Below, piece by piece: positions 32,939-59,056 of a stretch of 64,000 bases of DNA. Every line of letters starts with the position of its first letter. Position 1 is the first letter of the stretch. The DNA comes from Chloroflexota bacterium (GTDB taxonomy: Bacteria; Chloroflexota; UBA11872; VXOZ01). Position numbers and translations under genes: made by a program. The notes beneath the pieces were generated by a model. That model was not told the DNA's origin, searched no databases, and saw only the letters and a program-made list of their open reading frames with translations. The stretch is from assembly GCA_964291655.2 (NCBI GenBank), contig OZ219802.1, forward strand, positions 1,472,001 through 1,536,000. The letters are read 5' to 3'.

Positions 32939-33739
32939 CTAGTCGCTGTACGCCGCCAGCAGCTTCTCCACGTGCGCGCGTACAGAGTCGCGATCTGCGC
33001 TGCAGACGAGGCACGTAAAGGGGAACTCGCCGGTGGCGCGGAAGCGGGCGGCGTTGGGGTAGTGGAAATCGCCGGTGTGGGTCATGAACTGGCCCCACCA
33101 GCCGTAGGTAAAGGCAGGGCCGGAGACTCTACTCTGCTCGGTCCACTCCGGCGGAAAGAGCGAGCGAAACGGCGGCAAGGAATTAATCCAACTGCCGCAC
33201 TGCACAATCCGGATATCCGGCCGGTCGTGTTCCAAGTCGTCCAGGAGTTTCAGTAGCAACCGCGTCAGGGCGGGCATGTCCCAGAAGGGTGACTTGGGCT
33301 GCACCATGTTCGTGAAGTGGATGTGGACGATGTCTTCCGCGTAGTCGCGGCTGAAGCTGCCGTAGGGCGTGGGCGGGATTACCTGTCCCGCACCCTCCCA
33401 GAGGTTGCCCTTGCGTTCGCCGGCAAGGCGCTCTTCCATCGTGGGATGTAGCAGGGCATAGGCGGCCTCTTCCAGCGCATCCGTAGCCGCGTCATGGCGG
33501 TGCTCGTGAAAGAGTGCTTTCAACCGGTCCACGAGCACATCCCACTCGGGGTCTGGGTGGCCCTGCGCAGGATGATGCTCGCCATCCCAGAGGTGCGTGC
33601 GCCGGTAGATGTCAACGCGGGCGGCGATGAGCTCCTCAAAAGGACGCTGCTCAGTCTGGAGCAAGCGGTGCACGTACCAGGTCTTGAGCTTCACGCACTC
33701 GCGGTCGTAGTTGCGGCGGATGTCTAGCCGAGATGCCAT
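32939..33739 (-). CDS. Hypothetical protein
   Basis: 266-aa ORF with host-like codon usage; motifs HFTN..PKSPF, CGSWINS and WWGQF; family not recognised. Confidence 0.7.
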   Translation of the reverse strand: MASRLDIRRNYDRECVKLKTWYVHRLLQTEQRPFEELIAARVDIYRRTHLWDGEHHPAQGHPDPEWDVLVDRLKALFHEHRHDAATDALEEAAYALLHPTMEERLAGERKGNLWEGAGQVIPPTPYGSFSRDYAEDIVHIHFTNMVQPKSPFWDMPALTRLLLKLLDDLEHDRPDIRIVQCGSWINSLPPFRSLFPPEWTEQSRVSGPAFTYGWWGQFMTHTGDFHYPNAARFRATGEFPFTCLVCSADRDSVRAHVEKLLAAYSD

Positions 33740-33835
33740 TGCTCAATTTCCTGACGGAAAGCGTTGCGAAACATTGTCTGACATGAGTAACCGCATTCAA
33801 GAGGTGAAGATTTCCCCTCACCCCAACTCTCTCCC

Positions 33836-34123
33836 TGTACAGACCGGGGACATAGGTAACAGTTGTTCGGGGACATGGGTTACACATTTTACTGATTGAC
33901 ACCTACGAGAGCATTGGGTTGGTCCGGGTTTGATAAGAGACTGGCGACACAGTGCACTCACTTTCAGCCTGTCAGCTTGTGCCAGAGAAACAAACTGTGT
34001 GCATAAGGATATTGAGCGGATCTAACTTTCAAGGCAAGGACATCGCATACTACGAAAATCCCCTCGTTCTATGGTGTAACCTATGTGCCCGAACATGTGT
34101 AACCCATGTACCCGGTCTATACA
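33836..34123 (+). mobile_element. MITE-A copy 1 (288 bp, TGT..ACA, IS481-like ends)
   Basis: Terminal inverted repeats each with two GG(G/T/C)ACAT(A/G)GGT(A/T)ACA subrepeats; 5-bp duplication CTCCC. Confidence 0.95.
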
Positions 34124-34421
34124 CTCCCCAGGGAGAGGGGGTCATTGTCGCCCGCCTATCTTAGTAATGTATCGCACTGGAAGTCTGCGCGTGGCCCGAA
34201 CCAAGGTGGAGAGGGAGTCTCTCTTGCCCGCCAATCTTGCTCAAGCATCAGTCTGATGGTCCGCACATGCCCTAAACCAAGGTATGGGGGTCTCCAGGCG
34301 GGGATATAACCGTTTGCTCGATTCTCTCTTGAACGCTTCAAACGCCTGCCTAAACGCCTAGGGTCACCGTTTCGCCGGCTGAGCTTGTGGATGTGCTTAG
34401 AAACGATCCCGATTCTGTCGG

Positions 34422-35399
34422 CTACTCTTCCGGTACTACTGTAACAGGCAATCCAGTCTCGATAGATTGCCGCGCCGCCGTGATCAGGCGCATTGCCTCC
34501 ACGCCGTCCTCGCCGGTGACGATTGGCACTGTCTTGCCCGCCACACAGTCGAGAAAGTGGCTAATTTCCATATAATAGCGGTCGAGTCCGCCGACGTCCG
34601 TCTCCACCCGCTCGGTAACGTGATCCAGGCTAAAGCGGCTCCGTCCGGATTGAATGTCGATAACGATAGCGCCGCGTTCGCCGTAAATCTCAATGCACTT
34701 TTCCGAATGGGGCGACGACCAGCTTCCCTCCATGGCGCCGACCACGCCGTCCACACTCTCCGCCATGAAGACAACGGTATCGGTGCCGGCTATGTCTTGA
34801 GCGAGGGTCGCGCCCTTGGCGTAGATGTTCTTTAGCTCTCCAATTAGGTGGCGGAAGAGGTCGACGTAGTGAGGGCCGGACTCCCACAGGATGCCGCCGC
34901 CCCGCGCGGGATCTCCCAACCAGGTGCCGGCCATGAGCTCCACGCCCGCAAACCGGAGGCGGAAATGGTGCAGGGGGCCCAGCTTACCGGCATCGATCCA
35001 TGCTTTGGCTTTGGCGATGGGGGTATAGAAGCGGTTGCAGAATGCGGTCAGTAGATGGACGTTAGCGCGCCGGGCGGCAGCAACCATGGCCTGCCCCTCG
35101 GCCACGCTCATGGCCAGCGGCTTTTCACAGAGCACGTGCAGACCCCGCGCAACCGCCTGTTCGGTAATCTTGCGGTGGGAGGTCGGCGGCGTGCAAATGC
35201 TGACGGCATGCAGTTCTTCACTACGCAGCATGTCCGCGTAGTCGGTGTAGGCTTTTGCGCCGTACTCCTGCGCACGCGCCTCCGCGACGGCCAGAATAGG
35301 ATCGGCCACGGCCACAATCTGCGCCCGACCACTCTTGGCATAGCTGCACAAATGAGAATGGGAAATAGCGCCGCAGCCAATGACGCCCACACGGATCAT
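34422..35399 (-). CDS. Gfo/Idh/MocA family oxidoreductase
   Basis: VGVIGCGAI; HVLCEKPLA; GGGILWESGPHYVD. Confidence 0.92.
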   Translation of the reverse strand: MIRVGVIGCGAISHSHLCSYAKSGRAQIVAVADPILAVAEARAQEYGAKAYTDYADMLRSEELHAVSICTPPTSHRKITEQAVARGLHVLCEKPLAMSVAEGQAMVAAARRANVHLLTAFCNRFYTPIAKAKAWIDAGKLGPLHHFRLRFAGVELMAGTWLGDPARGGGILWESGPHYVDLFRHLIGELKNIYAKGATLAQDIAGTDTVVFMAESVDGVVGAMEGSWSSPHSEKCIEIYGERGAIVIDIQSGRSRFSLDHVTERVETDVGGLDRYYMEISHFLDCVAGKTVPIVTGEDGVEAMRLITAARQSIETGLPVTVVPEE

Positions 35400-35487
35400 G
35401 GAAGAGCCTTTCTCTGTCGAATTGCCACTCCTCAGGCCATGCAAACCGGAAATGCAAGGAGCCCCTCACCCCAGCCCTCTCCCCCAG

Positions 35488-36039
35488 GAGACCTCTGCGC
35501 AACTCTAGCGGTAGCGAAATAGTTCCCTCTCCCTCGACGGGAGAGGGCTAGAGCCTGCCCCGTACTCGATACGTGTATAGACCGGGGACATGGGTAACAG
35601 TTGTTCGGGCTCATAGGTAACACCATAGAACGAGGGGGTTTTCGTAGTATGCGATGTCCTTGCCTTGAAAGTTAGATCCACTCAATATCCTTATGCACAC
35701 TGTTTGTTTCTCTGGCACAAGCTGACAGGCGGAAAGTGAGTGCACTGTGTCGCCAGTCTCTTATCAAACCCGGACCAACCCAATGCTCTCGTAGGTGTCA
35801 ATCAGTAAAATGTGTTACCCATGTCCCCGAACAACTGTTACCTATGTCCCCGGTCTGTACAATACGGGGGTGAGGGTGAATCTCCGAATTCTCTCCATAG
35901 CATACAGATATTTGCTCGGCTACATCTTGACACTGCACCAGCGCAAGGGGCCACCGCAACATAAAGATCCCCTCACCCCGACCCTCTCCCCGAGGAGAGG
36001 GAGGTTTGCTCGCCGACAGGTAAGTTACGCAAAGGTCTC
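35488..36039. mobile_element. MITE-B (GAGACC..GGTCTC ends) containing REP hairpins and MITE-A copy 2
   Basis: Ends GAGACCTCTGCGCAACT and AGTTACGCAAAGGTCTC; CCCAG on both sides; sits inside a CCCTCTCC/GGAGAGGG hairpin. Confidence 0.85.
35574..35861 (-). mobile_element. MITE-A copy 2 (variant, about 11 substitutions)
   Basis: Same 288-bp length; 5-bp duplication ATACG. Confidence 0.95.
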
Positions 36040-36170
36040 CCCAGGGAGAGGGAGTCACTTTGCGCTTGCGGGTCGTTCGTACGCCAATCCCGCCGGTCGT
36101 ATGACTATGCCTCTGTTGAGCGATTCGCCGGGCTTCCGACCCCGGCAGAAGAAGATGCATGCCGTTTCGT

Positions 36171-36920
36171 TCATTGTTTTCGGCCTACCATGAGCCGAGT
36201 GAGCAAGCCGAACTGGGGCGGCGCGATTGCGAATGTCTCGCGTAGTGCCGGCGGCGCAGCGGCGAAGCGCGCACGCAACTCTTCAACAGCCTCCGGCGGT
36301 GTTTGCTGGCGGGCGACCCAATCGTCAAACTCCAACATCTTCAGCCAGGTGTGCGTCACCGCAAAGTTGAGGCCCGCCGCGTGAAAGAAGCCCTGCCACT
36401 CACCTTGGCTCCACTCGCGCACGTGCGAAGGGTCGCGCAGCACCTCCACAGCATTAATCCAGCGGTCCGCGATGGAATCGTCTGGTGACGTATTGTCCAC
36501 CACCAAGAAGCGGCCCCCAGCGGTCAGGACACGCGCCACTTCCTGCACCACGCGGGCGGGCTGTTGGAAGTGGTGCCCGGTGTAACGGCAAACAACGAGA
36601 GAAAAGCTCTCATCCGGAAACGGCAGGTGCTCAGCATTGCCGACGCTGGCTGCAAAATGAGCAATGCCGCGCTCGTAGGCATTGCGGCAGGCGGTCAAAA
36701 CCATCTGGGGCGTGATGTCAAAGCCGATGATTTGTCCCGCGCAGCGGGACAGAGCAAAGGCGGCGTGGCCCGCGCCGGTGCCGACATCCAGTGCACGGGC
36801 ATGTTGGCCGGGGCCGGCCTGCTCCACGAGCCAGTCCAGGTCCTCGCCCTCCGCGAAGGCCGCACTCTGGCTATACGCTTCTGCCGCACGGCCGAACTGT
36901 TTCTGAACTTGCTGATACAT
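36171..36920 (-). CDS. Class I SAM-dependent methyltransferase (YcgJ/YafE-like)
   Basis: ALDVGTGAGH, NAEHLPFPDESF, CR..GHHF and RDPSHVR motifs. Confidence 0.9.
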   Translation of the reverse strand: MYQQVQKQFGRAAEAYSQSAAFAEGEDLDWLVEQAGPGQHARALDVGTGAGHAAFALSRCAGQIIGFDITPQMVLTACRNAYERGIAHFAASVGNAEHLPFPDESFSLVVCRYTGHHFQQPARVVQEVARVLTAGGRFLVVDNTSPDDSIADRWINAVEVLRDPSHVREWSQGEWQGFFHAAGLNFAVTHTWLKMLEFDDWVARQQTPPEAVEELRARFAAAPPALRETFAIAPPQFGLLTRLMVGRKQ

Positions 36921-37130
36921 CGTCTCAGATAACCGTATCGCTCCCCAGGCCGGCAGACGAGATGACTCACTTACTCTGAGGTAATAACACCCATCCCAAG
37001 CTGTCAGCCCGCAAGACTCATTCTGCCTAGGAGACCATCGCACAGCCCAATTCTACAGGCGGCAAGACTCCCTCTCCCCTTGAAGACCCTACACGCCCAC
37101 ACCTAGCAGACCAAAAGACTCCCTCTCACC

Positions 37131-37244
37131 AGAAAGCCCCTGTGCACCCCTGCCCTGCAGGCCGCAAGACCCCCTCTCCCTGGGGAGAGAAAGCCCATGT
37201 GCACCCCTGCCCTGCAAGCCGCAAGACCCCCTCTCCCTGGGGAG
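37131..37244. repeat. 57-bp tandem duplication containing a REP hairpin
   Basis: 37131-37187 and 37188-37244 differ at two positions; more degenerate units lie upstream to about 37060. Confidence 0.85.
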
Positions 37245-37532
37245 TGTATAGACCGGGTACATGGGTTACACATGTTCGGGCACATAGGTTACACCATAGA
37301 ACGAGGGGATTTTCGTAGTATGCGATGTCCTTGCCTTGAAAGTTAGATCCGCTCAATATCCTTATGCACACAGTTTGTTTCTCTGGCACAAGCTGACAGG
37401 CTGAAAGTGAGTGCACTGTGTCGCCAGTCTCTTATCAAACCCGGACCAACCCAATGCTCTCGTAGGTGTCAATCAGTAAAATGTGTAACCCATGTCCCCG
37501 AACAACTGTTACCTATGTCCCCGGTCTGTACA
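37245..37532 (-). mobile_element. MITE-A copy 3
   Basis: Reverse complement of copy 1; 5-bp duplication GGGAG. Confidence 0.95.
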
Positions 37533-37943
37533 GGGAGAGGGCCGGGGTGAGGGGAATCTTCACCGTTACCGCCTATTGCCGCACGCTCGTCAGGACCGAA
37601 AATACATCCTTGGGACCAAGCCGTCTCATCCGCAGTCCCAAATCATCCAGCCTCCACTTAATCGCCGCGCTCCGCGCGGTTGCACAGCAACGACACAACT
37701 GTCCGCTCACGGCGGCTGTAACGTAACGACCTCAATGGGTCAAGCGGTCTCGATTCAGCAACTCCACGCCTCCGCCTCTCCGCATGGTAAAGGATGCGCC
37801 GCACTCAGGGCAACGGGAACATGACACTGGTTTAGTGCTATGCTAGAATCGTGGTTCGGGTGAAGAAGATGACACGTCCTTTGACGAATGGATATGTAAG
37901 TTTCTTTGTGTACGTAGCTCGTGGCAAGAAGGAGTTGCTCTTG

Positions 37944-38462
37944 ATGCGGTGGGGTTTGCGCGTTCCCTTGGCGCTCGTCGCGCTTGTGCTTTCGTTGATA
38001 CTTATCAGCGCTTGTGGTGGCGAAGAGAAAGCAGCCTGGAGTTGGGATGAAGACCCAACGCCCGAGACAGTCGCCTCCACAGATTCCTCTACCACCAAGA
38101 AAGATGATGCATGCGAACCGATGCCGGATTGCATCGAGGTTACCGTGGACCTTAGTAAGGGCAGGGCCGAGGACGGGATGGAGCTATTCGAGACAAAGGG
38201 ATGCGTCGCCTGTCATCAGGTTGAAGAAGGCGGCCCCGGTGGCACAATTGGCCCCTTACTTGCCGGTATTGGCGATCCCGCGGCGCGCCCGCAACTGGCG
38301 GCGGGTGATGAAGGTGCGGCAGGCATTCCCAACACTCCTGAGAATATCTGGCGCTGGGTGCAGTTCCCGCAAAAGATCAAGCCGGGAACGGAAATGGCGC
38401 CGCAACCCCTTGATGAGCAAGAGGCCGCTGACCTGGTAGCGTATCTGCAGACGCTGAAGTAG
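37944..38462 (+). CDS. Monoheme cytochrome c lipoprotein
   Basis: ISAC lipobox; CVACH heme motif; GP.L.GIG; P..IKPGTEM axial Met. Confidence 0.88.
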   Translation: MRWGLRVPLALVALVLSLILISACGGEEKAAWSWDEDPTPETVASTDSSTTKKDDACEPMPDCIEVTVDLSKGRAEDGMELFETKGCVACHQVEEGGPGGTIGPLLAGIGDPAARPQLAAGDEGAAGIPNTPENIWRWVQFPQKIKPGTEMAPQPLDEQEAADLVAYLQTLK

Positions 38463-38524
38463 TGCGTCCGGCGAACCGCAATTGGCCGCAGAGTTCGTGC
38501 GGCTCTTTCAGGGACCCGTAGTCG

Positions 38525-38983
38525 ATGCGCAGGCTTGTCCAAATCGCCGCAGGCCTATCTCTCGTCACTCTGTGGCTTGCTGCACTAACCGGCTGTCTTC
38601 CTTGGGATTCTCAGGAGCAGTCGACTGCTCAACCCATCGCGAATGGTGGTTCCCGCGCTTCCGCCAACCCGCTGTCAACCGTTCCGCCGGGAATTCTCGA
38701 CAATGGCAGCGCGACACAGGGCCAAGCGCTCTTCGCAAGCAAGGGGTGTACTGCTTGCCACCAGATCGGCGGTGAAGGCGGCAGCGCCGGTCCCGCCTTG
38801 GACGGCATCGGCGACCGGACGAAGCGGCCAACGCTGGCAGGCAACCTTGCAAACACGGCGGAAAACTTGTGGCTCTGGATCACGGATCCGCGATCGATCA
38901 AGCGTGATACCCTCATGGCGTCGCAGCCGCTCACTCCCCAAGAAGCCGTCGACCTCGTAGCATACCTGGAGACTCTGAAATAG
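38525..38983 (+). CDS. Monoheme cytochrome c lipoprotein, tandem paralog
   Basis: LTGC lipobox; CTACH motif; shared C-terminus DLVAYL.TLK. Confidence 0.88.
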   Translation: MRRLVQIAAGLSLVTLWLAALTGCLPWDSQEQSTAQPIANGGSRASANPLSTVPPGILDNGSATQGQALFASKGCTACHQIGGEGGSAGPALDGIGDRTKRPTLAGNLANTAENLWLWITDPRSIKRDTLMASQPLTPQEAVDLVAYLETLK

Positions 38984-39053
38984 GTGACTGTGCAGGCGGG
39001 AGGACTCCCTCTACCTGGGAAGAGAACAGGCGAATGATCCCACTCTCCCTGGG

Positions 39054-39800
39054 GAGACTTTTGCATAACCCTTGCTGGGGCGAGAAAGTCCCCTCTCCCG
39101 GTGGAGACCTTTGCATAACCCCACTTTCAAGCAGGGGCACTCCCTCTCCTGGGGGAGAGGGTCTTTTTGCTACGATGGCCCTTTACGCTGGGCAGTGTCA
39201 AGACGTATCAGGGCAGATTTGGTGTGCATATGGAGAGATTTCACGAGATTCACCCTCACCCTAACCCTCTCCCATCTGTACAGACCGGGGACATAGGTAA
39301 CAGTTGTTCGGGGACATGGGTTACACATTTTACTGATTGACACCTACGAGAGCATTGGGTTGGTCCGGGTTTGATAAGAGACTGGCGACACAGTGCACTC
39401 ACTTTCAGCCTGTCAGCTTGTGCCAGAGAAACAAACTGTGTGCATAAGGATATTGAGCGGATCTAACTTTCAAGGCAAGGACATCGCATACTACGAAAAT
39501 CCCCTCGTTCTATGGTGTAACCTATGTGCCCGAACATGTGTAACCCATGTACCCGGTCTATACAGGGGAGAGGGCCGGGGTGAGGGGGTCCTTATGCTAC
39601 GATGGCCCTTTACGCTGGGCAGTGTCAAGACGTATCAGGGCAGATTTGGTGTGCATATGGAGAGATTTCAGGAGATTCACCCTCACCCTAGCCCTCTCCC
39701 GTCGAGGGAGAGGGGACATCCGCGCTGTGGCGAGGGTTATGCAAAGGTCTCCGCCGGGAGAGGGGACTTTCCCGCCCCGCGTGGGTGATGCAACAGTCTA
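39054..39800. mobile_element. Doubly nested MITE-B structure (inner element 39104-39751) around MITE-A copy 4
   Basis: Left ends GAGACTTTTGCATAACC (39054) and GAGACCTTTGCATAACC (39104); right ends at 39751 and 39800; 106-bp direct repeat at 39168-39273 and 39595-39700. Confidence 0.8.
39277..39564 (+). mobile_element. MITE-A copy 4 (no matching target duplication)
   Basis: Appears identical to copy 1; flanks CCATC and GGGGA. Confidence 0.95.
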
Positions 39801-39859
39801 CCCAGGGAGAGGGTTGGGGTGAGGGTGAAGCATCAGAATAAGGTCAAATTGAAAGCGTA

Positions 39860-40507
39860 CTAGCCCTTCTGGCTGGTTCCCCGCAGCACCCAACCCAGCA
39901 CTGCCACCACCACAACTAAGAGCACCGCAAAGCCCAACCACGCCGGAATAAATTCCTGTAAAGGACTTTCAGCGGACGTGGTTGCATCGGCCCCGGCAGC
40001 CGTTGAACGTGTCCGCTCAATCCGGAAACCGGACTGTCGATAGGGCTCGCTGGTACCCGCGGCAGGCACTTGGCCCTCACCCAGCGCGTCAATGTCCGAC
40101 TGCGCGAGCGACAAGCGGCGCGTGCGGCTGCAAGGGACTGCGGTCTCGCCGTCGTAGGAGTAGACCAGCCACTCCTGTCCCACGTAGAACTCCACCCCGC
40201 AACTGCCGCTCCACCATGCCGTTTCGATGAACATGGTGGCATAGGCCTGGCCTTTCCAGACGGCGTACACTTCGAACTCCACCAAGACGTACCCGCTGAG
40301 CAGCGCCGGTTCGCGCAGCGTGCCGTCGCCCCCGCTGACGTGCACAACCTTCCCCGAGAACACTTTTGCGCTCTGCGCCAACGCCTCGGTGGGAGAGGGC
40401 GTTTCCCCGCACGAGCACGCATCTACGTCACCTACGAACAAGAGAAAGCAAAATCCGGCAAAGAATATTGCTGAGGAAAATCGCAAGGCTTGAACGGTCG
40501 TCATCAT
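39860..40507 (-). CDS. Membrane-anchored TIMP/NTR-like domain protein
   Basis: Signal peptide then ACSC; VFSGKV, V..VWKG, SCG..F..G.EWLVY and CSRT; C-terminal transmembrane helix. Confidence 0.7.
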   Translation of the reverse strand: MMTTVQALRFSSAIFFAGFCFLLFVGDVDACSCGETPSPTEALAQSAKVFSGKVVHVSGGDGTLREPALLSGYVLVEFEVYAVWKGQAYATMFIETAWWSGSCGVEFYVGQEWLVYSYDGETAVPCSRTRRLSLAQSDIDALGEGQVPAAGTSEPYRQSGFRIERTRSTAAGADATTSAESPLQEFIPAWLGFAVLLVVVVAVLGWVLRGTSQKG

Positions 40508-40809
40508 CACTTAATTATGTCTCATTCGTATGAAGCAATAACACTTGCCAACTCCCTGACTACTCCGTTGCAACGCAAGTACAAGTAGACGCACTAGGTG
40601 GGTTTCTCACTTAGCTGGTGGTCTAGTTACTCATCGTTGTATTTTTTTGTTTGCAACCTGATCCTGCGGAGTCCTGCAGATGCGAACTCTTAACCTACAA
40701 ACTCGAGGGTCGGCACAAGTTGACATACCGGTTGCGAACACTACCCGCACCTAATACATTGGATGGTGCGCGCAATTCGACTGGCAACAACAAGGCAAGG
40801 GAGCACAAG

Positions 40810-42657
40810 ATGGATTATATGGGCTACGGTATCGAAAATGAATTCCTCCAAGGGGTGCTAGGTGGATCAGCGGAGGGGAATACACAACTTCCCGACTTTC
40901 AGCGAGGTTGGGTGTGGGACGACGAACACGTGCGGAGCCTCCTCTCAAGCATCACTCTAGGATATCCGATCGGTGCAGTCATGATGCTTGAGGTCGGGGG
41001 CGATAGTGTTCGCTTCAAGCAACGCCCGCTTGAGGGTGCACCTGAGCCGAAGCAGGAAGCCGAGCGGTTAATCCTTGACGGACAGCAGCGGATAACGTCG
41101 CTATTCCAGTCCCTCCGCCCTGACCAACCAGTTCGCACCCGCGACCAGCGCGGACGGCAAATCGACCGCTGGTACTACATCAAAATGGAACTGGCTCTGG
41201 ACCCAAGTTCCGATCGTGAGGACGCGGTGGTCTCGCTGCCAGCAGACCGGCAGATCAAACGTTTCGGGCGCGATGTCATAGAGGACTACTCGACTCCCAA
41301 TCTAGAGTATAAGGCAATGCTCTTTCCGCTGTCCCAGGCATTCGATTCGAGCGACTGGCGTGTGGGCTTCGAAAAGTACTGGGACTACAACAGAGAGAAG
41401 ATCAAACTGTGGAACGAATTTGAAAAGAAGATCGTCAAGCGCATTCAGCAGTACCAAGTGCCGGTAATTGAGCTTGGAAAGGACACTCCGAAAGAGGCTG
41501 TGTGCCAAGTCTTTGAGAAGGTGAACACAGGGGGCGTGACACTTACTGTTTTCGAGCTGCTTACCGCAACTTTTGCAGCTGACGACTTCCAATTGCGACC
41601 AGACTGGGAGGTACGGGAGCGTACGATACACTCCCAGTCGGTACTCACTGGCGTGTCCAATACGGACTTCCTTCAGGCTGTAGCGTTGCTCGCAACCCTT
41701 GAGCGGCGGCAGGTTGCCATGCGTGATGGCACGGACGCGGACCGTGCGCCGGGAGTAGGGTGTAAGCGCGCGGACATGTTGCGGCTGAGTCTCGAAGAGT
41801 ATCAGAGGTGGGCGGATCCACTGATGAGGGGCTTCGAGAGGGTGGCGCGATTTCTTCACGCGCAACGCCTTTTCGACGCCAAGTTCCTGCCCTACGGTAG
41901 CCAATTGATTCCGTTGGCCGCAATCCTCACAGAACTTGACAGCGATTGGGAGCCGCACCCTGCGAGGGAGAAGCTCGCGCGCTGGTACTGGTGCGGCGTC
42001 CTAGGAGAATTGTACGGTGGATCAGTCGAGACTCGATTTGCCCTCGACCTTCCGGAGGTTGTGAATTGGATTCGGGACAACGGGCCAGAGCCGAGGACGA
42101 TCTATGACGCTGAGTTCGCCCCGGCCCGACTGCTTACACTGCGCACCCGGAATAGCGCAGCATATAAGGGCGTGTACGCACTGCTGCTGCGCGAAGGTGC
42201 ATGCGACTGGATCACAGGAGAGGAATCGTCGATACAGTCCTACTTCGACGAGAGAATCGACATCCACCACATCTTCCCCCAAAAATGGTGCCGCGAGCAG
42301 GGGATAGAGGCAGCGCGCTGTGACTCGATTATCAACAAGACGCCACTCACGGCACGGACGAACCGTAGCATTGGCGGCCAAGCGCCCGGCGCATACCTGA
42401 ATCGCATCATGTCGGATGGCGTTTCGCGAGACGCGCTGAACATCTACCTCGACTCGCATCTCATCGACCCCGAGCACCTATGGCTTTCCGATTTTAGTCA
42501 ACTCTTTCGCGCAAGGGAATCGGCTCTTCTCAATGCAATCAGGAAGGCGATGGGGAAGCCCATCGCGTCCAGGACGGTAGATGAGCCCGACGACACGCCG
42601 GTCGATTACGAACTTGTGCAGGAAGATAGTTTGGAGTTGGAGGGCGTGCCTGGTTGA
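40810..42657 (+). CDS. GmrSD-type modification-dependent endonuclease (DUF262 plus HNH-like domain)
   Basis: LPDFQRGWVW, LDGQQR, FEKVNTGG; C-terminal DIHHIFP..N.TPL...TN..I; RBS AAGGGAG. Confidence 0.88.
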   Translation: MDYMGYGIENEFLQGVLGGSAEGNTQLPDFQRGWVWDDEHVRSLLSSITLGYPIGAVMMLEVGGDSVRFKQRPLEGAPEPKQEAERLILDGQQRITSLFQSLRPDQPVRTRDQRGRQIDRWYYIKMELALDPSSDREDAVVSLPADRQIKRFGRDVIEDYSTPNLEYKAMLFPLSQAFDSSDWRVGFEKYWDYNREKIKLWNEFEKKIVKRIQQYQVPVIELGKDTPKEAVCQVFEKVNTGGVTLTVFELLTATFAADDFQLRPDWEVRERTIHSQSVLTGVSNTDFLQAVALLATLERRQVAMRDGTDADRAPGVGCKRADMLRLSLEEYQRWADPLMRGFERVARFLHAQRLFDAKFLPYGSQLIPLAAILTELDSDWEPHPAREKLARWYWCGVLGELYGGSVETRFALDLPEVVNWIRDNGPEPRTIYDAEFAPARLLTLRTRNSAAYKGVYALLLREGACDWITGEESSIQSYFDERIDIHHIFPQKWCREQGIEAARCDSIINKTPLTARTNRSIGGQAPGAYLNRIMSDGVSRDALNIYLDSHLIDPEHLWLSDFSQLFRARESALLNAIRKAMGKPIASRTVDEPDDTPVDYELVQEDSLELEGVPG

Positions 42658-42774
42658 CTGTTTGCCTTGGTCGTGATTTGTTCCTGAGGGGTAGCGATTC
42701 GCAACTGTTTTTTTGTTTAGCCATTTGCGTGGTCTGTTGTGAGGTCTGTGAAAGAACGGTTCCATCCGTAACAT

Positions 42775-42935
42775 TCAAAGGCCAACCGGCGTCACGAAAG
42801 GGGTAATTTCGGTGCGGAGTCTCTGCTCCCGGAAGCGATTGGCAAGCGGGCGCCGCGGCCTCTTCTTGGCAGACGGTGAATACCGTTGGCCCGCTGCCGG
42901 AGACCTGGGCGTGTTGAGCGCTGGCTTGCATCAAG
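42775..42935 (-). pseudogene. Diverged, frameshifted 3' fragment of ispE
   Basis: MQASAQHAQVSGSGPTVFTVCQE aligns with MQAGAERAHVSGSGPTVFAVCED of IspE; after a frameshift it reads LANRFREQ against LANRIRMQ. Confidence 0.8.
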
Positions 42936-43021
42936 TCGTTTTTGTGCCACTGTGATCTACGGCCGCAGGCATGTCGCTGCTGTCACTGCTAGTCCTGCCA
43001 GTAATCGGCGGCCGCTGTCGA

Positions 43022-44629
43022 TCACAACTTTATTGGGGTATTGGTGCCTGTTAATTGGCAGGGCGAGCCCGCACTTGGCCAATTTCCTTTGACGAAGTCG
43101 GCAGCCCGCTCTGCCATTGCAATCACCGTGTGGTTGAGGTTGGCCCGCACGGTATCGGGCATGATTGACGCGTCGCAGATGCGGAGGCCCACGACGCCGT
43201 GCACCCTGCCGTATTGGTCCGTCACGGCCAGTGGATCGGTGGCGGGCCCCATTTTGCAGGTGCTTGAGACGTGATGGGCCGTGACCACCTCGCGTTTCAT
43301 CCATGAATCCAGGGCAGCGTCATCGTCAAGGACATTGTCCGCGGGCGCGACCCGTTCAGCGACCATGTCTGCGAAGGCTGCATGTTGGAACAACCCGGCG
43401 CAGGTCCGGATGCTCTCGCGCAGCCGCGAGCGGTCGAACGGATCGTCCAGCAGGTTGAAGTCGAGGTACGGCTGCTGCCGCGGGTCATCGGATTGGAGGC
43501 GGAGTTCGCCCTGGCTCAGGGCCAAATAGAGGCACTGGCTCACGCCGATGCCTATCGGAATCAGATGGTCCGCGCCCCGCATGGGCCGTTCCGCCGCATA
43601 GTTGCCCATGTAGATCACCAGGTCATTCTTGAATGGCGAACCGGTGGCCGTATAGCGCAGCGTGACCATGCCCGTCGCCACCTGAGAGGTGAACAGGCGA
43701 AATCCTGCTCGCGTGCGCCAGGCCATGGGCACGTCCGGGTGGTCGCGAAGATTGCGGCCGACGCCTGGGAGGTCGTGCACAACGGGTATGCCAAACTGCC
43801 GCGACTGCGCCGCCGGTCCGATTCCCGATAGCGCCAGGATGTGGGGCGAGCCGATCGCCCCGGCGCAGAGGACGATCTCGTCGCCATAGACGTCAAACGT
43901 TTCATTCCCGCTGATAGCGCGCACGCCTACTGCGCGGTTGTCCTGAAAGATGATGCGGTGGACGAGGCAGCGGGGTCGAATAGTCAGCTCCGGACGGGCG
44001 CGGGCAGGATTGAGGTAGGCGAAGGCCGTGCTCACACGCGTGCGGCCCGCAATGTTGAACGCCAGCGGTCCTACGCCTGTGGCATGGGGCAAATTGTGGT
44101 CGGGACAGTCGGGAATTCCGGCGTCACGGCAGGCCTCATAGAACGCGTGCTGTTGGGGTCCCCATACGCCGGGCTGAAACCGGTGGCAGTACATGGGACC
44201 GTCCGCGCCGTGAAGCTCGCTTTGAAAGTCCGCGTCCGCTTCCAGTTTCTTTAGATAGGGTAAGACTTTCGCGTACTCCCACTCCGGATTGCCCCACGAC
44301 GCCCACCGCTCGAAGTCTTCCGGCATTGCCCGCAAGAACTGCGCGTCGTTGACAGCGCTGGAACCGCCGGTGACCTTGCCGCGCGGTATATCAATCTCGG
44401 CTTCATCCGTCGCCCGGGCGCGAAACTTCCATATGTGTTCGGTCTCCCAGAGGCTTGTGTCAACGCCGTAGACGTACTCTAGCGGGTGCGGCAACCGCGC
44501 CTCCGAGGGAAAGTCCGCCCCGGCCTCGAGCAGCAGCACCGAGCGGTGGGGGTCTTCGGTCAGGCGGGCCGCCAAGACCGCGCCAGCCGAACCCGCGCCA
44601 ACGATAATGTGATCGTATCTCTTGCTCAT
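43022..44629 (-). CDS. GMC family oxidoreductase (choline dehydrogenase-like)
   Basis: IVGAGSAG..LA.RL; RGKVTGGSSAVN; VGRNLRDH; H..STCKMG; DASIMP. Confidence 0.93.
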   Translation of the reverse strand: MSKRYDHIIVGAGSAGAVLAARLTEDPHRSVLLLEAGADFPSEARLPHPLEYVYGVDTSLWETEHIWKFRARATDEAEIDIPRGKVTGGSSAVNDAQFLRAMPEDFERWASWGNPEWEYAKVLPYLKKLEADADFQSELHGADGPMYCHRFQPGVWGPQQHAFYEACRDAGIPDCPDHNLPHATGVGPLAFNIAGRTRVSTAFAYLNPARARPELTIRPRCLVHRIIFQDNRAVGVRAISGNETFDVYGDEIVLCAGAIGSPHILALSGIGPAAQSRQFGIPVVHDLPGVGRNLRDHPDVPMAWRTRAGFRLFTSQVATGMVTLRYTATGSPFKNDLVIYMGNYAAERPMRGADHLIPIGIGVSQCLYLALSQGELRLQSDDPRQQPYLDFNLLDDPFDRSRLRESIRTCAGLFQHAAFADMVAERVAPADNVLDDDAALDSWMKREVVTAHHVSSTCKMGPATDPLAVTDQYGRVHGVVGLRICDASIMPDTVRANLNHTVIAMAERAADFVKGNWPSAGSPCQLTGTNTPIKL

Positions 44630-44831
44630 GCTATTCAGTCGGTCGTGCGCGCGCGTTTCCGTGCGGCCGGCTTGCCTTCCCGCGCGGTGTAGATCTCTTC
44701 CACCGCATTGGAGGGCCGATATGCAAAGAATCCTTTGTGTAATGTTAGCGGTTCCGTGAGAGTTTCTTCTCCCTTGACAGAGTCCCTTGCGTAACTCTAG
44801 CGGAAGCGAGTATGTTCCCTCTCCCGCGATG

Positions 44832-44976
44832 GAGACCTCTGAATTGCTCCGTCATACCGGCGAAAACTGGAATCCAGAAGTCTGAGGGTAGCTTGCGATT
44901 ACTAGCTATGGAGCCAAAGTGTACTCCTCACCACTTGGACATCCTCATGAAGGGGATAGGGTTTTGCAAGGGTCTC
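44832..44976. mobile_element. Inner MITE-B-like element in a hairpin loop
   Basis: GAGACCTCTG..TTGCAAGGGTCTC flanked by CGCGATG and CGCGACG. Confidence 0.7.
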
Positions 44977-46700
44977 CGCGACGGGAGAGGGTTAGAGCCT
45001 GCCCGTAGGTGATATGGGGTGAGGGTGAATCTCCTGAAGTCTCTCCATATGCACACCGACACTGCCCTAATACGTCTTGACACTGCCCAGCGTATAGTGC
45101 CATTGTAGCAAGTAGACCCCCTCACCCCAACCCTCTCCCCCAGAGGCTGTCTCAATATTTTGGTGCGGGGCACGGTGAATGGGGTGAGAAGGACAGACAG
45201 ATGGCGGGTGGTATGAACAAGACGGTGCCAGTGAGAGACTCGTCCCCGGGGCGACGCTGGACTACACCCAGACCGCCACAGGGCGTGGAGGCTCTTGAGA
45301 TTGAACGCGGTGGCCAGCAGGTGCCATTCGGACGTCACGTGGCTGCGGCCTCTGAGCAGGAAGCGCCTGGCACTGTGCCACTCCTTGAGCAGGCCAAAGA
45401 CCGGCTCGACGATGGTACTCCGGCGGCGGTACACCTGCTTGGCAGGCGCGGTGGCCATCAACTGCCTGTGCCGTTGCAGTATTGGCTCGTAGGCGCTGAT
45501 CTTTATGGAGCGGCCCCTCTGGGAGGAGGTGCAGACGCCGAAGGCCGGACAGGTTCTGCAGTCCCGGCCGTTGGCTTGGTACCGCTTGACCCGGTAGCCG
45601 TTGCTGTGGGTCAAGCGGTGCGTGTAGGTGAGCACCTTTTGCTGGGGACACAGGTAGGTGTCGGTCTCTGGACGGTAGGTGAAGTGGTCTTTATGGTAGG
45701 GGTTGCGGCGTCTGCGCTCGTGGGTCGTGGGCATCAATACCGTGTGGCCGCCGGCGTGGCACGTGGCGAGGTTGGCCCCCGAATGGTAGCCGGCGTCCGC
45801 AACGGTCACCACGTCCCGCGCGGCGTCGATGTTCTCCTGCGCCGCCTCGATCAGCGGCGCCAGGTGGGGATGGTCGTCGGCACTGGCGCTCACGTCCACG
45901 GCTGTGATCAACCTCCCCCCTGCGCCCTCGTCCGGGGACGCAAGAGGGGAGACCAGCGCCTGGGCGTTGTAGCCGGTGATGAAGCCACCCATGCCAGTCT
46001 TGAGCAGGGCCGCGTCCGCATCAGTCAGGTTCGTGTAGCGCGGCCCGTCCTCAGCCGCGACGCGGGCGAGCGCGTCGTCCACCCGCCGCCGCAGGGCCTG
46101 GGCATCGGCAAGTTCCTGCGGCAAAGTCGCTGGCGGCGCGTCGCCCCCCGTGGCGTTCTGCGCCTCCAGGTCCGCGATCGCTTGCTCGGTGCGGGACAAC
46201 AGCCGCTGCAGCCCCTGCGCGTCGTGGGTATGCCGCGTCCCGGCGTTGGCCGCGATCCTGGTGCCGTCCACCGCCTGGATTGCCAACTCCACCAGGCCGG
46301 CTCGCACCGCCGTGCGCACCGTGCGCTTGAGCAGCGTCCGCATCCGGTCGCGGTGCGCCTTGTAGAAGCGCCACAGCGTGTTGTGGTCCGGCTGCTGCAT
46401 CCCCACCAGCCACAGGTACGGTACCTGATCCCGGCAGGCTGCCTCCAGCTTGCGGCTCGAGCGCACGCCGGTCATGAAGCCGTAGACCCATACGCCCAGC
46501 AGCGCGCGCGGATGGTAGGCCCCGGCGCCACGCGGATCGCCTTGCAGGTCAATCTCCATCGCCTCCCAGGCCGCAGCATCGAGGCTGTCCACGAACGCTG
46601 CCGCAAACCTGACAGGATGGTCGTCCGGGATCAGTTCGTCCAGCGTCGGCGGCAACAGCCAGGCCTGTTCACGACTAAACGGTCTCAACGGCATCGTCAC
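44928..46700 (-). CDS. IS1182 family DDE transposase (frame runs past the IS end)
   Basis: Q..LLPP.LDELIP.DHP, YHP..LL, SSRKLE, PDHNT, DGT.I.AN, GYNAQ, ADAGY, Y.CP and YRRR..IVEPVFG motifs. Confidence 0.93.
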   Translation of the reverse strand: MTMPLRPFSREQAWLLPPTLDELIPDDHPVRFAAAFVDSLDAAAWEAMEIDLQGDPRGAGAYHPRALLGVWVYGFMTGVRSSRKLEAACRDQVPYLWLVGMQQPDHNTLWRFYKAHRDRMRTLLKRTVRTAVRAGLVELAIQAVDGTRIAANAGTRHTHDAQGLQRLLSRTEQAIADLEAQNATGGDAPPATLPQELADAQALRRRVDDALARVAAEDGPRYTNLTDADAALLKTGMGGFITGYNAQALVSPLASPDEGAGGRLITAVDVSASADDHPHLAPLIEAAQENIDAARDVVTVADAGYHSGANLATCHAGGHTVLMPTTHERRRRNPYHKDHFTYRPETDTYLCPQQKVLTYTHRLTHSNGYRVKRYQANGRDCRTCPAFGVCTSSQRGRSIKISAYEPILQRHRQLMATAPAKQVYRRRSTIVEPVFGLLKEWHSARRFLLRGRSHVTSEWHLLATAFNLKSLHALWRSGCSPASPRGRVSHWHRLVHTTRHLSVLLTPFTVPRTKILRQPLGERVGVRGSTCYNGTIRWAVSRRIRAVSVCIWRDFRRFTLTPYHLRAGSNPLPSRRPLQNPIPFMRMSKW

Positions 46701-46786
46701 TACCTCTCTACAAACTATCCCACCACCTCACCTTGCTTCTCTTCACACCAGTATATATCCAGTAGATCTATTTTTGAGACACCCTC
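45143..46786 (-). mobile_element. IS1182 family insertion sequence
   Basis: Inverted repeats GAGGCTGTCTCAATATT / GAGGGTGTCTCAAAAAT; sits in the loop of CCCTCTCC..GGAGAGGG. Confidence 0.92.
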
Positions 46787-46833
46787 CCCGGGAGAGGGAG
46801 TGCCCCTGCTTGAAAGCGGTATGCAATGGTCTC

Positions 46834-47052
46834 CATCGGCAAGGGCTCCCAAACCATGAACGACATCGTCCAGCGCCCCGTACGGTGGTCCGCTCGCGCA
46901 GGCCTAGTCGGTAAGCCGGCGGCATGGTGGCCGTCGAACCTCACCGACCTGGCCGCCAGCCTATTGAGAGCGGGTGTGCGAATTGCAGGACTGTCGTAGG
47001 ATCGTGGGTGGTCCCTGCGGAAGCTGTCTGCAACCACACAGATGACATTCAA
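46834..47052 (-). pseudogene. Truncated sulfatase-like N-terminal fragment
   Basis: NVICVVADSFRRDH..Y....IRTPALNRLA..SVRF......PT.PARAD..TGR, ending at the MITE-B terminus. Confidence 0.7.
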
Positions 47053-47135
47053 ATTGACTGCTCCCTGATGCTCCCGACAAATGTACCATAGGCCGCGAGG
47101 AGCAGGCAGAGTCTGTGCGCCGTTGGCTCCTAGCC

Positions 47136-48029
47136 TTACATGCCGGCGTGGCCCCAGGTCCTCCCGGACTGAACAATGCGGACGAGCTCGGCGGCGTACC
47201 CCTGCATTCGGATGCGGTTGGCAAGCGCGAGTGCGGCGTGCCTGTCTTCGCACACGGCAAAGACCGTAGGGCCGCTGCCGGAGACGTGAGCACGCTCGGC
47301 GCCGGCTTGCATCAGGGCAATCTGCGCTGCTGCAATTTCCGGCGCCAGGTCGCGAGCGGAGCGGGCTAAGCCGTTGTGCCAGCGAATCTGTGGTGAGAGC
47401 GTGCCGAGCCGGGCGGCGGCAACGGCGTCTGCGGTGGCGACGCCTGAGGTGTAGTCCGACGGGGTTACGGAGCCATAGACCTCCGCTGTGCTAAGCGTGG
47501 TTGGCAGCAGCACGAGCACCACCCAGTGCGGTGGCAGTGGCGGCAGTGGCGTGATGCGTTCACCGCGACCGGTGGCAAGCGCCGTGCCGCCTGTGAGAAA
47601 GAACGGCACGTCCGATCCCAATCCGGCAGCCAGTGCCTGCATCTCCGTTAGGGGTAGTTGAAGATTCCACAGCCGGTTGAGGGCAATGATAGCTCCCGCC
47701 GCATCGCTGCTGCCGCCGCCCAGGCCGGCCGCGACCGGTATGCGTTTCTCCAGACTGAGCGCGGCGCCCGCCCGCACGGAGAATTCTGTCTGTAGCCGCC
47801 GCGCGGCGCGATACATGAGATTATCCGGCTTTGCCAGCACGGGGTCTGAACATGTGAAGGATAGTTCGTCTGCCGCCGCGACCTCCAGCCGGTCGGCCAG
47901 CCCGACGGTCTGCATCACCGAGCGAACCTCATGGAAGCCGTCGGCGCGTTTCCCCAATATCTCCAGGGTCAGATTGATCTTGGCGTAGCAATTAACAACC
48001 ACGGTGATCCCGATCTCTCGTGCAGGCAC
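47136..48029 (-). CDS. ispE: 4-diphosphocytidyl-2-C-methyl-D-erythritol kinase
   Basis: AKINLTL, KRIPVAAGLGGGSSDAA, LGSDVPFF, GRGE and SGSGPTVF motifs. Confidence 0.97.
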   Translation of the reverse strand: MPAREIGITVVVNCYAKINLTLEILGKRADGFHEVRSVMQTVGLADRLEVAAADELSFTCSDPVLAKPDNLMYRAARRLQTEFSVRAGAALSLEKRIPVAAGLGGGSSDAAGAIIALNRLWNLQLPLTEMQALAAGLGSDVPFFLTGGTALATGRGERITPLPPLPPHWVVLVLLPTTLSTAEVYGSVTPSDYTSGVATADAVAAARLGTLSPQIRWHNGLARSARDLAPEIAAAQIALMQAGAERAHVSGSGPTVFAVCEDRHAALALANRIRMQGYAAELVRIVQSGRTWGHAGM

Positions 48030-48199
48030 GACACCATCTTAATGCACAACAGGGATGGCCGGTACCTTGCCATCCCTGCGTTCAATTCAATTCGGCTCTA
48101 GCGTGTTTCAGATGTGCGGTCTGCACGAGCATGCGGACTCTCAGAGCTTGCCTGTCTTGAGTTTGACGAAGAGTGGAAGGGCAGGTCATGTTGTTCGAG

Positions 48200-48601
48200 G
48201 AGACCTTTGCGCAACCCCCGCCGGATGCGCAAGAACCACTCCCTCTCCCTGGGGAGTGTATAGACCGGGTACATGGGTTACACATGTTCGGGCACATAGG
48301 TTACACCATAGAACGAGGGGATTTTCGTAGTATGCGATGTCCTTGCCTTGAAAGTTAGATCCGCTCAATATCCTTATGCACACAGTTTGTTTCTCTGGCA
48401 CAAGCTGACAGGCTGAAAGTGAGTGCACTGTGTCGCCAGTCTCTTATCAAACCCGGACCAACCCAATGCTCTCGTAGGTGTCAATCAGTAAAATGTGTAA
48501 CCCATGTCCCCGAACAACTGTTACCTATGTCCCCGGTCTGTACACTCCCCAAGGAGAGGGGGCAGTTCTTGCGCCACCGGCCGGGGTTACGCAAGGGTCT
48601 C
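48200..48601. mobile_element. MITE-B arms in inverted arrangement around MITE-A copy 5
   Basis: GAGACCTTTGCGCAACC.. and ..GGTTACGCAAGGGTCTC; the two 57-bp arms are imperfect reverse complements. Confidence 0.8.
48257..48544 (-). mobile_element. MITE-A copy 5 (inverted flanks)
   Basis: Appears identical to copy 3; flanks GGGAG and CTCCC. Confidence 0.95.
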
Positions 48602-48824
48602 CTGAGGGAGAGGAAACAAACTCGGATCCGAGTTATCTATCAAGTCCATCTGGATGCGGTACTAGGGCTGTCTGCGCGCGAGGCAAACCCGTGCGATTCC
48701 GGCGGCAGACGCGGCAACAGCTCGGCGGTGGGCCGAGCCGCTAGTCCGCAGTACTCGCCAGCAGATGCCTCGCACGACTATAGCAGACAGAGCAGCGCCT
48801 ATTCGCTATTGCATGACCGCTCGC

Positions 48825-49757
48825 CTACGCCCGATATGGCTTGCCGGTGCGGCGCAGCTCTTTCGTCACCGCGATCTGGCAGGTCACGTACGCGCTCTCG
48901 GTAGGCCGGCCGCGGTGATTCATATCGCCGGCGGAATAGCCGGGACGGGCGTCGCCGATGGTGCCGACGATGAGGTTCGCGTGTTCGGTGGTCGTATCGT
49001 AGCGGTCGGCGATGAGGCCCACCATGTCCGCCCACGCCGCGCGCACGGCATCCGTCCAGGTGCGGCCCTGACCGGCGGTGAGGTATTCCTCCGCGCTCTC
49101 CACGATGTTGGTCGTCTCAACCACGGGGCTGGACGTCGAGAATCCCGGCGAGCGGTCGACTCGTATCGTCACTGCCGTGTCGATCTCGACACCGGTGCCG
49201 GTGAGTTCGCCGTCGGACATGCGCGCGTGGGCGTCGGCGAGGGTCAGCAGGCCGCCGGCTTTCTGCGCGCGAATGTGCACGGTGCTGCCGGGCCGCGTTG
49301 AGTTGAAGTCCATGTTGCCGCCGTGGTCGATCTCATACGGGTCCACAGACTCCAACATGACCACGCCCACCATGGGGCGCACCGGCACCACGAAGTCCGG
49401 TGGGAAATGCACCAGACCGTCACGCACAGGGGCAATAAGGCGCACACTGCCCCAATTTGGGCCGCCGTTGCGGTAGAAGCCGTAGGGGCCGCACTCCATA
49501 TCCAGGATTTCGATAGATACCCAGTCACCGGGTTCGATGCCTTCGATATAGAAAGGCCCGCCCGGCCGCGAGTAGCGCGGTGTCCCGACTTCCATGACGG
49601 CGCCGGGCTTGAGTTCGCCCTTGATCTTCAGGTCCTGGTCGTGGCCACCGACCGTTTCGATGACCACCGTCTCACCCAATCGCAGGGTGCCTCTAAGCTC
49701 ATCACGCTCAGGATCGTGGGGTCCGTTGTAGTAGGGTGTACGGGTGAAGCGCCGCAT
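48825..49757 (-). CDS. Acetamidase/formamidase family protein
   Basis: GPFYIEGIEPGD, RPMVGV, HGGNMD and DAHARMSDGE.TGTGVE motifs. Confidence 0.87.
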   Translation of the reverse strand: MRRFTRTPYYNGPHDPERDELRGTLRLGETVVIETVGGHDQDLKIKGELKPGAVMEVGTPRYSRPGGPFYIEGIEPGDWVSIEILDMECGPYGFYRNGGPNWGSVRLIAPVRDGLVHFPPDFVVPVRPMVGVVMLESVDPYEIDHGGNMDFNSTRPGSTVHIRAQKAGGLLTLADAHARMSDGELTGTGVEIDTAVTIRVDRSPGFSTSSPVVETTNIVESAEEYLTAGQGRTWTDAVRAAWADMVGLIADRYDTTTEHANLIVGTIGDARPGYSAGDMNHRGRPTESAYVTCQIAVTKELRRTGKPYRA

Positions 49758-58828: not shown

Positions 58829-59056
58829 GAGGCCTTTGGCTAACGCCGTCATTCAGGCGAAAAGTCCGCCCCGTACGTGAAACAGGGGTGAAGGCGAATC
58901 CCCTAAAACCTGTATATAGCGCACCGATTATTGCGCTGCTACATCGTGAAGCTGCACATTGCAAGGGGCAATTGTAGCCATAGGAGCCCTAACCCCGACC
59001 CTCTCCCCCAGGAGAGGGAGGTTTTGTCGCCTGCTGTTGGGTTACGCAAGGGTCTC
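58829..59056. mobile_element. Degenerate MITE-B copy
   Basis: Right end GGTTACGCAAGGGTCTC; body resembles 35870-36039; decayed left end GAGGCCTTTGGCTAAC. Confidence 0.6.

Follow-up and report, generated by a model that had tools for sequence, protein, structure and literature searches.

Bacterial MITEs are short, non-coding elements with terminal inverted repeats and target duplications; they share their ends with an autonomous IS, they are polymorphic and nested MITEs exist. REPINs and BIMEs are REP doublets that are moved by RAYT. That ISs target REPs has been described before (Tobes & Pareja 2006; IS1272). ISs of five families (IS3, IS110, IS4, IS256 and IS5) target REPs, including IS1397, ISKpn1, ISPpu9/10, ISRm22 and ISNm1106, a REP-associated member of the IS5 family (PMC1525189). 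In that article, the terms IS481, 'MITE' and 'nested' have 0 occurrences. IS1272 (IS1182 family) targets stem-loops of varied sequence and is reported to replace the target inverted repeat without producing a duplication (Wan et al. 2017, PMC5678879).

We analyzed a 64,000-nt stretch of a Chloroflexota genome, hereafter the window (G000:C2:1472001-1536000). The genome, G000, comprises 3.47 Mb in two contigs with 59% G+C, and was compared with 16 sister species of the same genus (17 genomes including G000). The elements described here are new members of IS families already known. We consider it very probable that one REP hairpin is the shared integration site of four DDE-transposon lineages, and that one element, B-long, brings REPs with it and nests stack. 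The lineages meeting at the REP would be an IS5 family (here orphan B MITEs), an IS481-family IS with its MITE-A, a second IS481-family IS and an IS1182-family IS.

The systems of Tobes & Pareja (PMC1525189) present the same specific IS insertion into REP palindromes, but here IS481 and IS1182 elements insert too, all four lineages use one REP, and one lineage survives only as REP-carrying MITEs. Like IS1272, the IS1182-family element integrates at potential stem-loops; however, it keeps the arms and duplicates the 4-nt loop, whereas IS1272 is reported to replace the inverted repeat (PMC5678879). Relative to bacterial MITEs generally, B-long differs in that its subterminal regions are full copies of its target and that the cognate IS is absent from G000. 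It resembles REPINs and BIMEs in holding two REPs in inverted orientation, but B is set apart by terminal repeats of DDE type and by its target duplications, and the Y1 gene of G000 is not associated with the REP.

The nest at 35461-36052 and its orthologous sites

The sequence-only reading had described an outer REP hairpin split by an element B that itself holds two hairpins and a 24-nt module split by MITE-A. All of these parts are present:

35461 to 35487, plus strand: 5' part of the outer REP, with the CCCTCACCCC tail, the CCCTCTCC arm and the left CCCAG copy (35483-35487)
35488 to 36039, no strand assigned: B-long MITE, 259 bp without its passenger, with ends GAGACCTCTGC...GCAAAGGTCTC; a derivative of an IS5-family IS
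35524 to 35549, no strand assigned: intact REP hairpin in subterminal position at the left B end, with CTCGACG as its loop
35552 to 35573, plus strand: 5' part of the 24-nt hairpin module, ending in the left ATACG copy and completed at 35862-35868
35574 to 35861, plus strand: MITE-A, 288 bp, with ends TGTATAGACC...GGTCTGTACA; non-autonomous form of a 1265-bp IS481-family IS
35862 to 35868, plus strand: right ATACG copy and the last 2 nt of the module
35970 to 36001, plus strand: intact REP in subterminal position at the right B end, made of a tail and the hairpin CCCTCTCC-CCGA-GGAGAGGG (hairpin at 35982-36001)
36040 to 36052, plus strand: 3' part of the outer REP, with the right CCCAG copy (36040-36044) and the GGAGAGGG arm

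The REP hairpin CCCTCTCC-loop-GGAGAGGG is interrupted by a 552-bp element made of the 259-bp B-long MITE and the 288-bp MITE-A, and the 5-bp duplications are perfect for both (CCCAG for B-long, ATACG for MITE-A). The inverted arms of this MITE-A are 50 nt long with 90% complementarity, and its insertion site is the small hairpin CCCCGTA-CTCGA-TACGGGG of the module. The terminus pattern of B was matched 14 times in the window against an expectation of 4.8 +/- 2.1, and 14 matches were reached in 0 of 100 shuffles. No Rfam family matched positions 33500-49000. The loci that we read by eye lie between ORFs; at this one, the flanking genes encode a GFO/IDH/MocA oxidoreductase (34422-35444) and a methyltransferase (36171-37043). 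Over 34422-37043, the nest has widened the spacer between these two minus-strand genes to 726 bp, and this may uncouple their transcription.

Both flanking genes have orthologues in the sister genomes. Five of these (G003, G015, G007, G004 and G005) present a spacer of about 60-80 bp without a REP, and a REP stands at a similar position in G001 and G016. In the orthologous spacer of G012, the REP (...CCCTCTCCCCAGGGAGAGGG...) is uninterrupted and represents the empty site of B. In G008, where the gene is 93% identical, the REP is split by B at the identical point before the contig ends, and the module hairpin is uninterrupted, which is the empty site of MITE-A. A second MITE-A of the window (33836-34123) is also missing in G008, where its hairpin is intact. 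The sister loci that we read, together with G000, thus present four states: no REP, REP only, REP with B, and REP with B and MITE-A. Since empty orthologous sites exist in related genomes for B (G012) and for MITE-A (G008), the nesting is real, and the duplications and the graded states show that separate insertions built it. The presence/absence polymorphism at orthologous sites is also that of MITEs. Because the module is present in the B copy of G008, it was inherited with B at this locus and does not represent a separate local event.

The history of the locus would then have started with the REP. B-long, with the module already aboard, would have entered the REP loop before the split from G008, and MITE-A would have entered the module hairpin in the G000 lineage only. 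The 17 species offer in this way a natural gradation from empty through half-filled to filled sites. Such nests break short-read assemblies, and at one orthologous locus checked the G008 contig ends inside B. Both contigs of G000 end in copies of the IS1182-family element (C2:2642381-2643963 and C1:828441-830011), and they may represent pieces of one replicon broken at a repeat rather than two replicons.

The same nesting logic had been claimed for 39054-39800, 44780-46833 and 48200-48601. These intervals do contain nests as described, although the evidence is less clean. The further copies and nests of the window are:

33836 to 34123, minus strand: MITE-A in a solitary REP, duplication CTCCC
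37245 to 37532, plus strand: MITE-A in a solitary REP, duplication GGGAG
39054 to 39800, no strand assigned: mini-B of ~100 nt (terminus-spacer-hairpin-spacer-terminus), hairpin split by a 648-bp B (39104-39751)
44780 to 46833, no strand assigned: B-long with two passengers, a 145-bp B-type element and an IS1182-family IS, one per hairpin
44832 to 44976: the 145-bp B-type element, 7-bp duplication CGCGATG/CGCGACG
45143 to 46786, minus strand: IS1182-family IS, 1644 bp, with ends GAGGCTGTCTCAA.../...TTGAGACACCCTC and a transposase ORF at 44928-46700
48200 to 48601, no strand assigned: mini-B of ~114 nt with a MITE-A (48257-48544) in its hairpin
58829 to 59056, no strand assigned: further B-long-sized copy, 228 bp, with a degenerate left terminus, GAGGCCTTTGG

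At 39054-39800 and 48200-48601, the nests consist of a short, palindromic mini-B with only one hairpin, in which further elements are lodged. The 648-bp B of the former contains a MITE-A (39277-39564) with the central B segment duplicated on either side. No recognisable duplication surrounds the outer B at 44780-46833. The left flank of the MITE-A at 48257-48544 is GGGAG and its right flank CTCCC, which is not a direct repeat. Neither this copy nor that at 39277-39564 has matching duplications, and their flanks come from different hairpin halves. These mismatched flanks and the repeated B core around 39277 indicate that recombination between copies has also shaped the nests, and the two MITE-A copies without duplications point to recombination as a second source of nests.

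Element families and their transposases

Throughout G000, 28 pairs of B termini are flanked by a perfect 5-bp duplication of the form C-NNN-G. Stepwise excision recovered 52 B elements: 34 B-long (~234-236 or 256-259 bp), 12 B-short (~139 bp) and 6 singletons. Each end of B-long consists of an 11-nt terminus, a spacer of ~27 nt and a full REP facing inward. The one B-short copy that we read end to end (139 bp; G000:C2:1279272-1279410) shows no REP by eye. This copy holds a TTCCGGC-TTTC-GCCGGAA hairpin, a palindrome found 83 times in the genome.

The termini had been said to recall those of the IS5 group (IS1106-like). This holds at the family level: scanning public genomes with the 18-nt B terminus led to a 1200-bp element (locus L101) whose 331-aa ORF matches the IS5-family transposase model NF033581 (306 bits for a cut-off of 140) as well as DUF772 and DDE_Tnp_1. 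The model score places the parent of B, whose gene lies outside G000, in the IS5 family. Eight of the 16 sister genomes encode transposases 54-59% identical to the one of L101. Among the copies whose flanks were read, elements of 1217-1248 bp with GAGACCTTTGC ends sit in REP hairpins in G003, G004, G006, G010, G011 and G015, and a 1235-bp copy of G013 lies outside a REP. With 139-259 bp against 1200-1248 bp for the ISs that share its ends in other genomes, B has the dimensions of a MITE. We found 0 matches to an IS5-type transposase in G000 at E <= 1e-20 and no autonomous B; the only multi-copy elements of at least 600 bp in this genome are the IS481 types and the IS1182-family IS. B is therefore an orphan without an autonomous partner in G000, and it cannot feed back now unless it is moved by another transposase. 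The IS1182 element was considered for this role and rejected: its ends are unlike those of B and its duplications are 4 bp long instead of 5 bp. We also considered the second IS481 element, found inside a 2798-bp B pair, as an autonomous B, but this element is bounded by TGTATAGACC ends of its own and occupies a B hairpin.

MITE-A is represented in G000 by 44 copies of at least 250 bp (BLAST), of which 33 share 96-100% identity with the query and the other 11 about 75%. Its termini also bound 17 copies of a 1265-bp element with a 377-aa ORF that matches the IS481-family model NF033577 (290 bits, cut-off 224) and contains rve, HTH and LZ_Tnp_IS481 domains. The ends of this IS are TGTA...TACA, and TGT ends are a trait of the IS481 family; both the model score and these ends assign the parent of MITE-A to IS481. 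With its 50-nt inverted arms and ends common to the 1265-bp IS, the 288-bp MITE-A has the features of a MITE, and it is a deletion derivative of this IS481-family IS of G000. Using tblastn, we identified in G000 17 copies with at least 97.6% identity, 7 with 88-92% and 4 copies of the second IS481-family element at 55%, which is found in B hairpins as well. The median pairwise identity is 96.5% among MITE-A copies, several of which are identical, against 83.6% among B-long copies: in G000, MITE-A is young and B is old. Relatives of the IS481 transposase were examined at 79 loci of other MAGs, mostly of Chloroflexota with a few from other phyla. By eye, many of them are bracketed by the two halves of a G+C-rich palindrome, whose sequence varies, and 36 of the 79 present a perfect 5-bp duplication.

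The transposase of the IS1182-family element scores 364 bits with NF033551 (cut-off 270), which confirms its family. There are 25 copies of this IS in G000. The copy of the window is flanked by the loop copies CCCA/CCCG, and all 23 copies for which both ends were listed (23/23) are flanked by REP arms with a 4-nt loop on each side.

Target use and hairpins carried by B

Stepwise excision recognised 123 insertion events in G000. Copies with poor duplications escaped this procedure (20 of the ~72 IS481-type copies, 6 of the 25 IS1182 copies and every B with a poor duplication). The events are distributed as follows:

IS481-type: 52 events, 50 in a REP hairpin, 31 of those in a B-subterminal hairpin
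IS1182: 19 events, 19 in a REP hairpin, 11 of those in a B-subterminal hairpin
B: 52 events, 34 in a REP hairpin, 10 of those in a B-subterminal hairpin

Hairpins carried by B are used by B itself and by the other families, as the sequence-only reading had maintained. The remaining 18 of the 52 B events occurred at non-REP sites of the form C-NNN-G, and B is not REP-specific. Perfect duplications accompany 46 of 52 IS481-type, 33 of 52 B and 13 of 19 IS1182 events. Fully nested inside recognised B elements are 18 IS481-type, 3 IS1182 and 2 B elements. We also considered that B insertions might recreate junction pseudo-hairpins attracting B, but only 1 of the 52 B events abuts another B end.

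G000 contains 168 exact and 311 near-exact intact REP hairpins, and 378 hairpins after excision of the IS481 and IS1182 insertions. A B terminus lies within 60 nt, mostly at 27-31 nt, of 171 of these 378. We defined B-borne hairpins by this distance, as BLAST homology did not separate solitary REPs from B ends. B-borne hairpins received 52 of the 103 hairpin insertions, roughly their 45% share. Relative to this availability, 62% of the IS481-type and 58% of the IS1182 hairpin insertions fell in B-borne hairpins, and only 29% of those of B; a preference for B-borne hairpins is not clear. Across the 17 genomes, the counts of exact B termini and of intact hairpins correlate with a Spearman coefficient of 0.89, these genomes being related and not independent points.

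Each insertion had been proposed to deliver fresh landing sites, with positive feedback in the pile-up of elements. The first part applies to B-long, which carries a full REP at each end, and fails for MITE-A, IS481 and IS1182 elements, none of which contains one in the window copies that we read; self-seeding is thus a property of B-long only. A B-long insertion would split one hairpin and add two intact ones, which would later take IS481, IS1182 and B insertions, and accumulation would have proceeded by positive feedback. Intergenic REPs are probably tolerated sites. A target-specific MITE with its own target could in this way make ever larger stacks of mobile DNA out of a few palindromes between genes.

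The 24-nt module (AGCCTG-CCCCGTA-loop-TACGGG) occurs 106 times in G000 with at most 2 mismatches: 33 copies are in a REP linker, 16 stand before TTGCAAAC, 13 between CAGGCTCAGA and GCGAACG, and 41 elsewhere. At least 3 lie inside a TTCCGGCGAAA/GCCGGAA hairpin, and the TTCCGGC-TTTC-GCCGGAA palindrome of B-short is one such context. The contexts unrelated in sequence number at least four, and 'empty' versions were found 160 times for the REP linker and 83 times for the TTCCGGCGAAA/GCCGGAA hairpin. Among the 26 of 30 B-long copies that could be oriented (4 ambiguous copies were excluded), the module is present in 8 and absent in 18. Close B copies differ in having or lacking it at the same point, and this difference runs through at least five sub-lineages. 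Either the module moves and prefers a certain site, or conversion has spread it.

Competing explanations and recognition of the hairpin

Several other explanations can be weighed against REP hairpins as shared integration sites replenished by B-long. The GAGACC...GGTCTC termini and the REP arms could be fixed parts of one composite repeat, without any insertion: ...TCCC-NNN-G precedes most B termini, and the B end GGAGAC resembles the arm GGAGAG. This account is almost certainly wrong, however, as 18 of the 52 B copies lie in non-REP DNA with 5-bp duplications, the duplications vary from copy to copy and the orthologous REP of G012 is uninterrupted. The G012 REP and the non-REP sites contradict the idea that the termini belong invariably to a larger repeat. 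Homologous recombination or gene conversion could have generated most nests, leaving targeted transposition a minor role, and would account for the mismatched flanks of the MITE-A copies at 39277 and 48257, for the duplicated B core around the former, and for the presence or absence of the module in at least five B sub-lineages, which conversion can produce. We regard it as very unlikely to be the main process given the high numbers of perfect duplications in all three groups of events (46/52, 33/52 and 13/19 for IS481-type, B and IS1182) and the clean empty sites in sister species.

A more serious competitor, although still an unlikely one, holds that REPs are an independent host or RAYT-type repeat of which B-long captured two, so that B adds little to REP numbers. 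The REP is a high-copy short palindrome, as expected from the REP/RAYT type, and as single-stranded DNA it is predicted to form an 8-bp stem (-8.2 kcal/mol). In favour of this competitor, 207 of the 378 hairpins have no adjoining B end, REP-only states exist at orthologous sites, and G012 contains 218 hairpins for only 40 exact B termini. Against this, 45% of the hairpins keep a constant distance of 27-31 nt to a B terminus, solitary REPs are followed downstream by sequence that resembles the B-end spacer (by eye, in the copies read), and the sole Y1_Tnp (RAYT-like) gene of G000 is flanked by a different palindrome. This gene, the only Y1_Tnp match in G000 (30 bits, a 276-aa open frame in G000:C2:2521981-2525214, locus L235), has no CCTCTCC arm within 1.4 kb or in its 3.2-kb locus, so that the flanking REPs typical of RAYT genes are missing. 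It adjoins tandem copies of a GCGGGCG-AGA-CGCCCGC palindrome, and these repeats may constitute a second, unrelated REP system.

The element boundaries with their duplications, the empty sites at orthologous loci, the target statistics, the families of the transposases and the share of hairpins borne by B are all observed. Beyond these, we infer that the transposases which share the REP as integration site recognise its palindrome. They could read it as two CTCC half-sites, similar to the ...GGTCTC end of the transposon, or in the form of an extruded hairpin. The use of one 20-nt hairpin by three unrelated families of DDE transposases suggests that structure is read as well as sequence. Pairing the B ends by their spacers (CTCC to the left end and right end to GGAG) yielded 27 pairs with direct repeats, whose duplications measure 4 bp (2 pairs), 5 bp (19), 6 bp (2), 7 bp (3) and 8 bp (1). 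Since the element starts with G and ends in C, the lengths of 4 and 6 bp carry an ambiguity of one base; the 7- and 8-bp duplications cannot be read as 5 bp. Full-length IS5-type copies of sister species present duplications of 5, 6 and 8 bp. B duplications are 5 bp at non-REP sites and 4-8 bp in hairpins, and these few cases suggest that the attack points of B follow the arms, with no fixed stagger. Duplications of 2-4, 8 or 9 bp are typical of the IS5 subgroups.

As a tentative extension, which we find possible and no better than that, the IS5-type transposase of B would read the hairpin without a fixed stagger, and the REP would stand at the centre of a community of mobile elements that propagates itself. 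The IS5-type ends would be joined just after CTCC on each strand, and the duplication would correspond to the sequence between the arms. Integration would in that case take place in an extruded hairpin or cruciform, or through contacts with two half-sites that are only loosely coupled. The community would include a MITE carrying its own target and the 24-nt module, with elements ranging down to 24 nt. A duplication that depends on loop length would provide a direct handle on the choice of two attack points by a DDE transposase. A limited literature search, which is not proof of absence, found no report of REP targeting by the IS481 family, of a MITE carrying the REP that it targets or of a duplication that follows the length of the loop. 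The MITE with its own target, the loop-length duplication (4-8 bp) and the dispersed 24-nt hairpin module may be new.

The exact 18-nt B terminus (loci L098-L177) was also found in records titled as other phyla, among them Desulfatiglandales, Nitrospinales, Syntrophales, Smithella and a Thermoplasmata archaeon. Its neighbour in some genomes of Chloroflexota is another palindrome, TTCCCGCGAAAGCGGGAA. These occurrences suggest that elements with this terminus are widespread and have a general liking for hairpin loops. Locus L140 presents repeated right ends in 84-nt steps with an identical duplication. Finally, tandem units of ~30 nt ending in CAAAGGTCT(C/G) stand beside a full-length IS5-type copy in G011 (L227, ~2533-2751).
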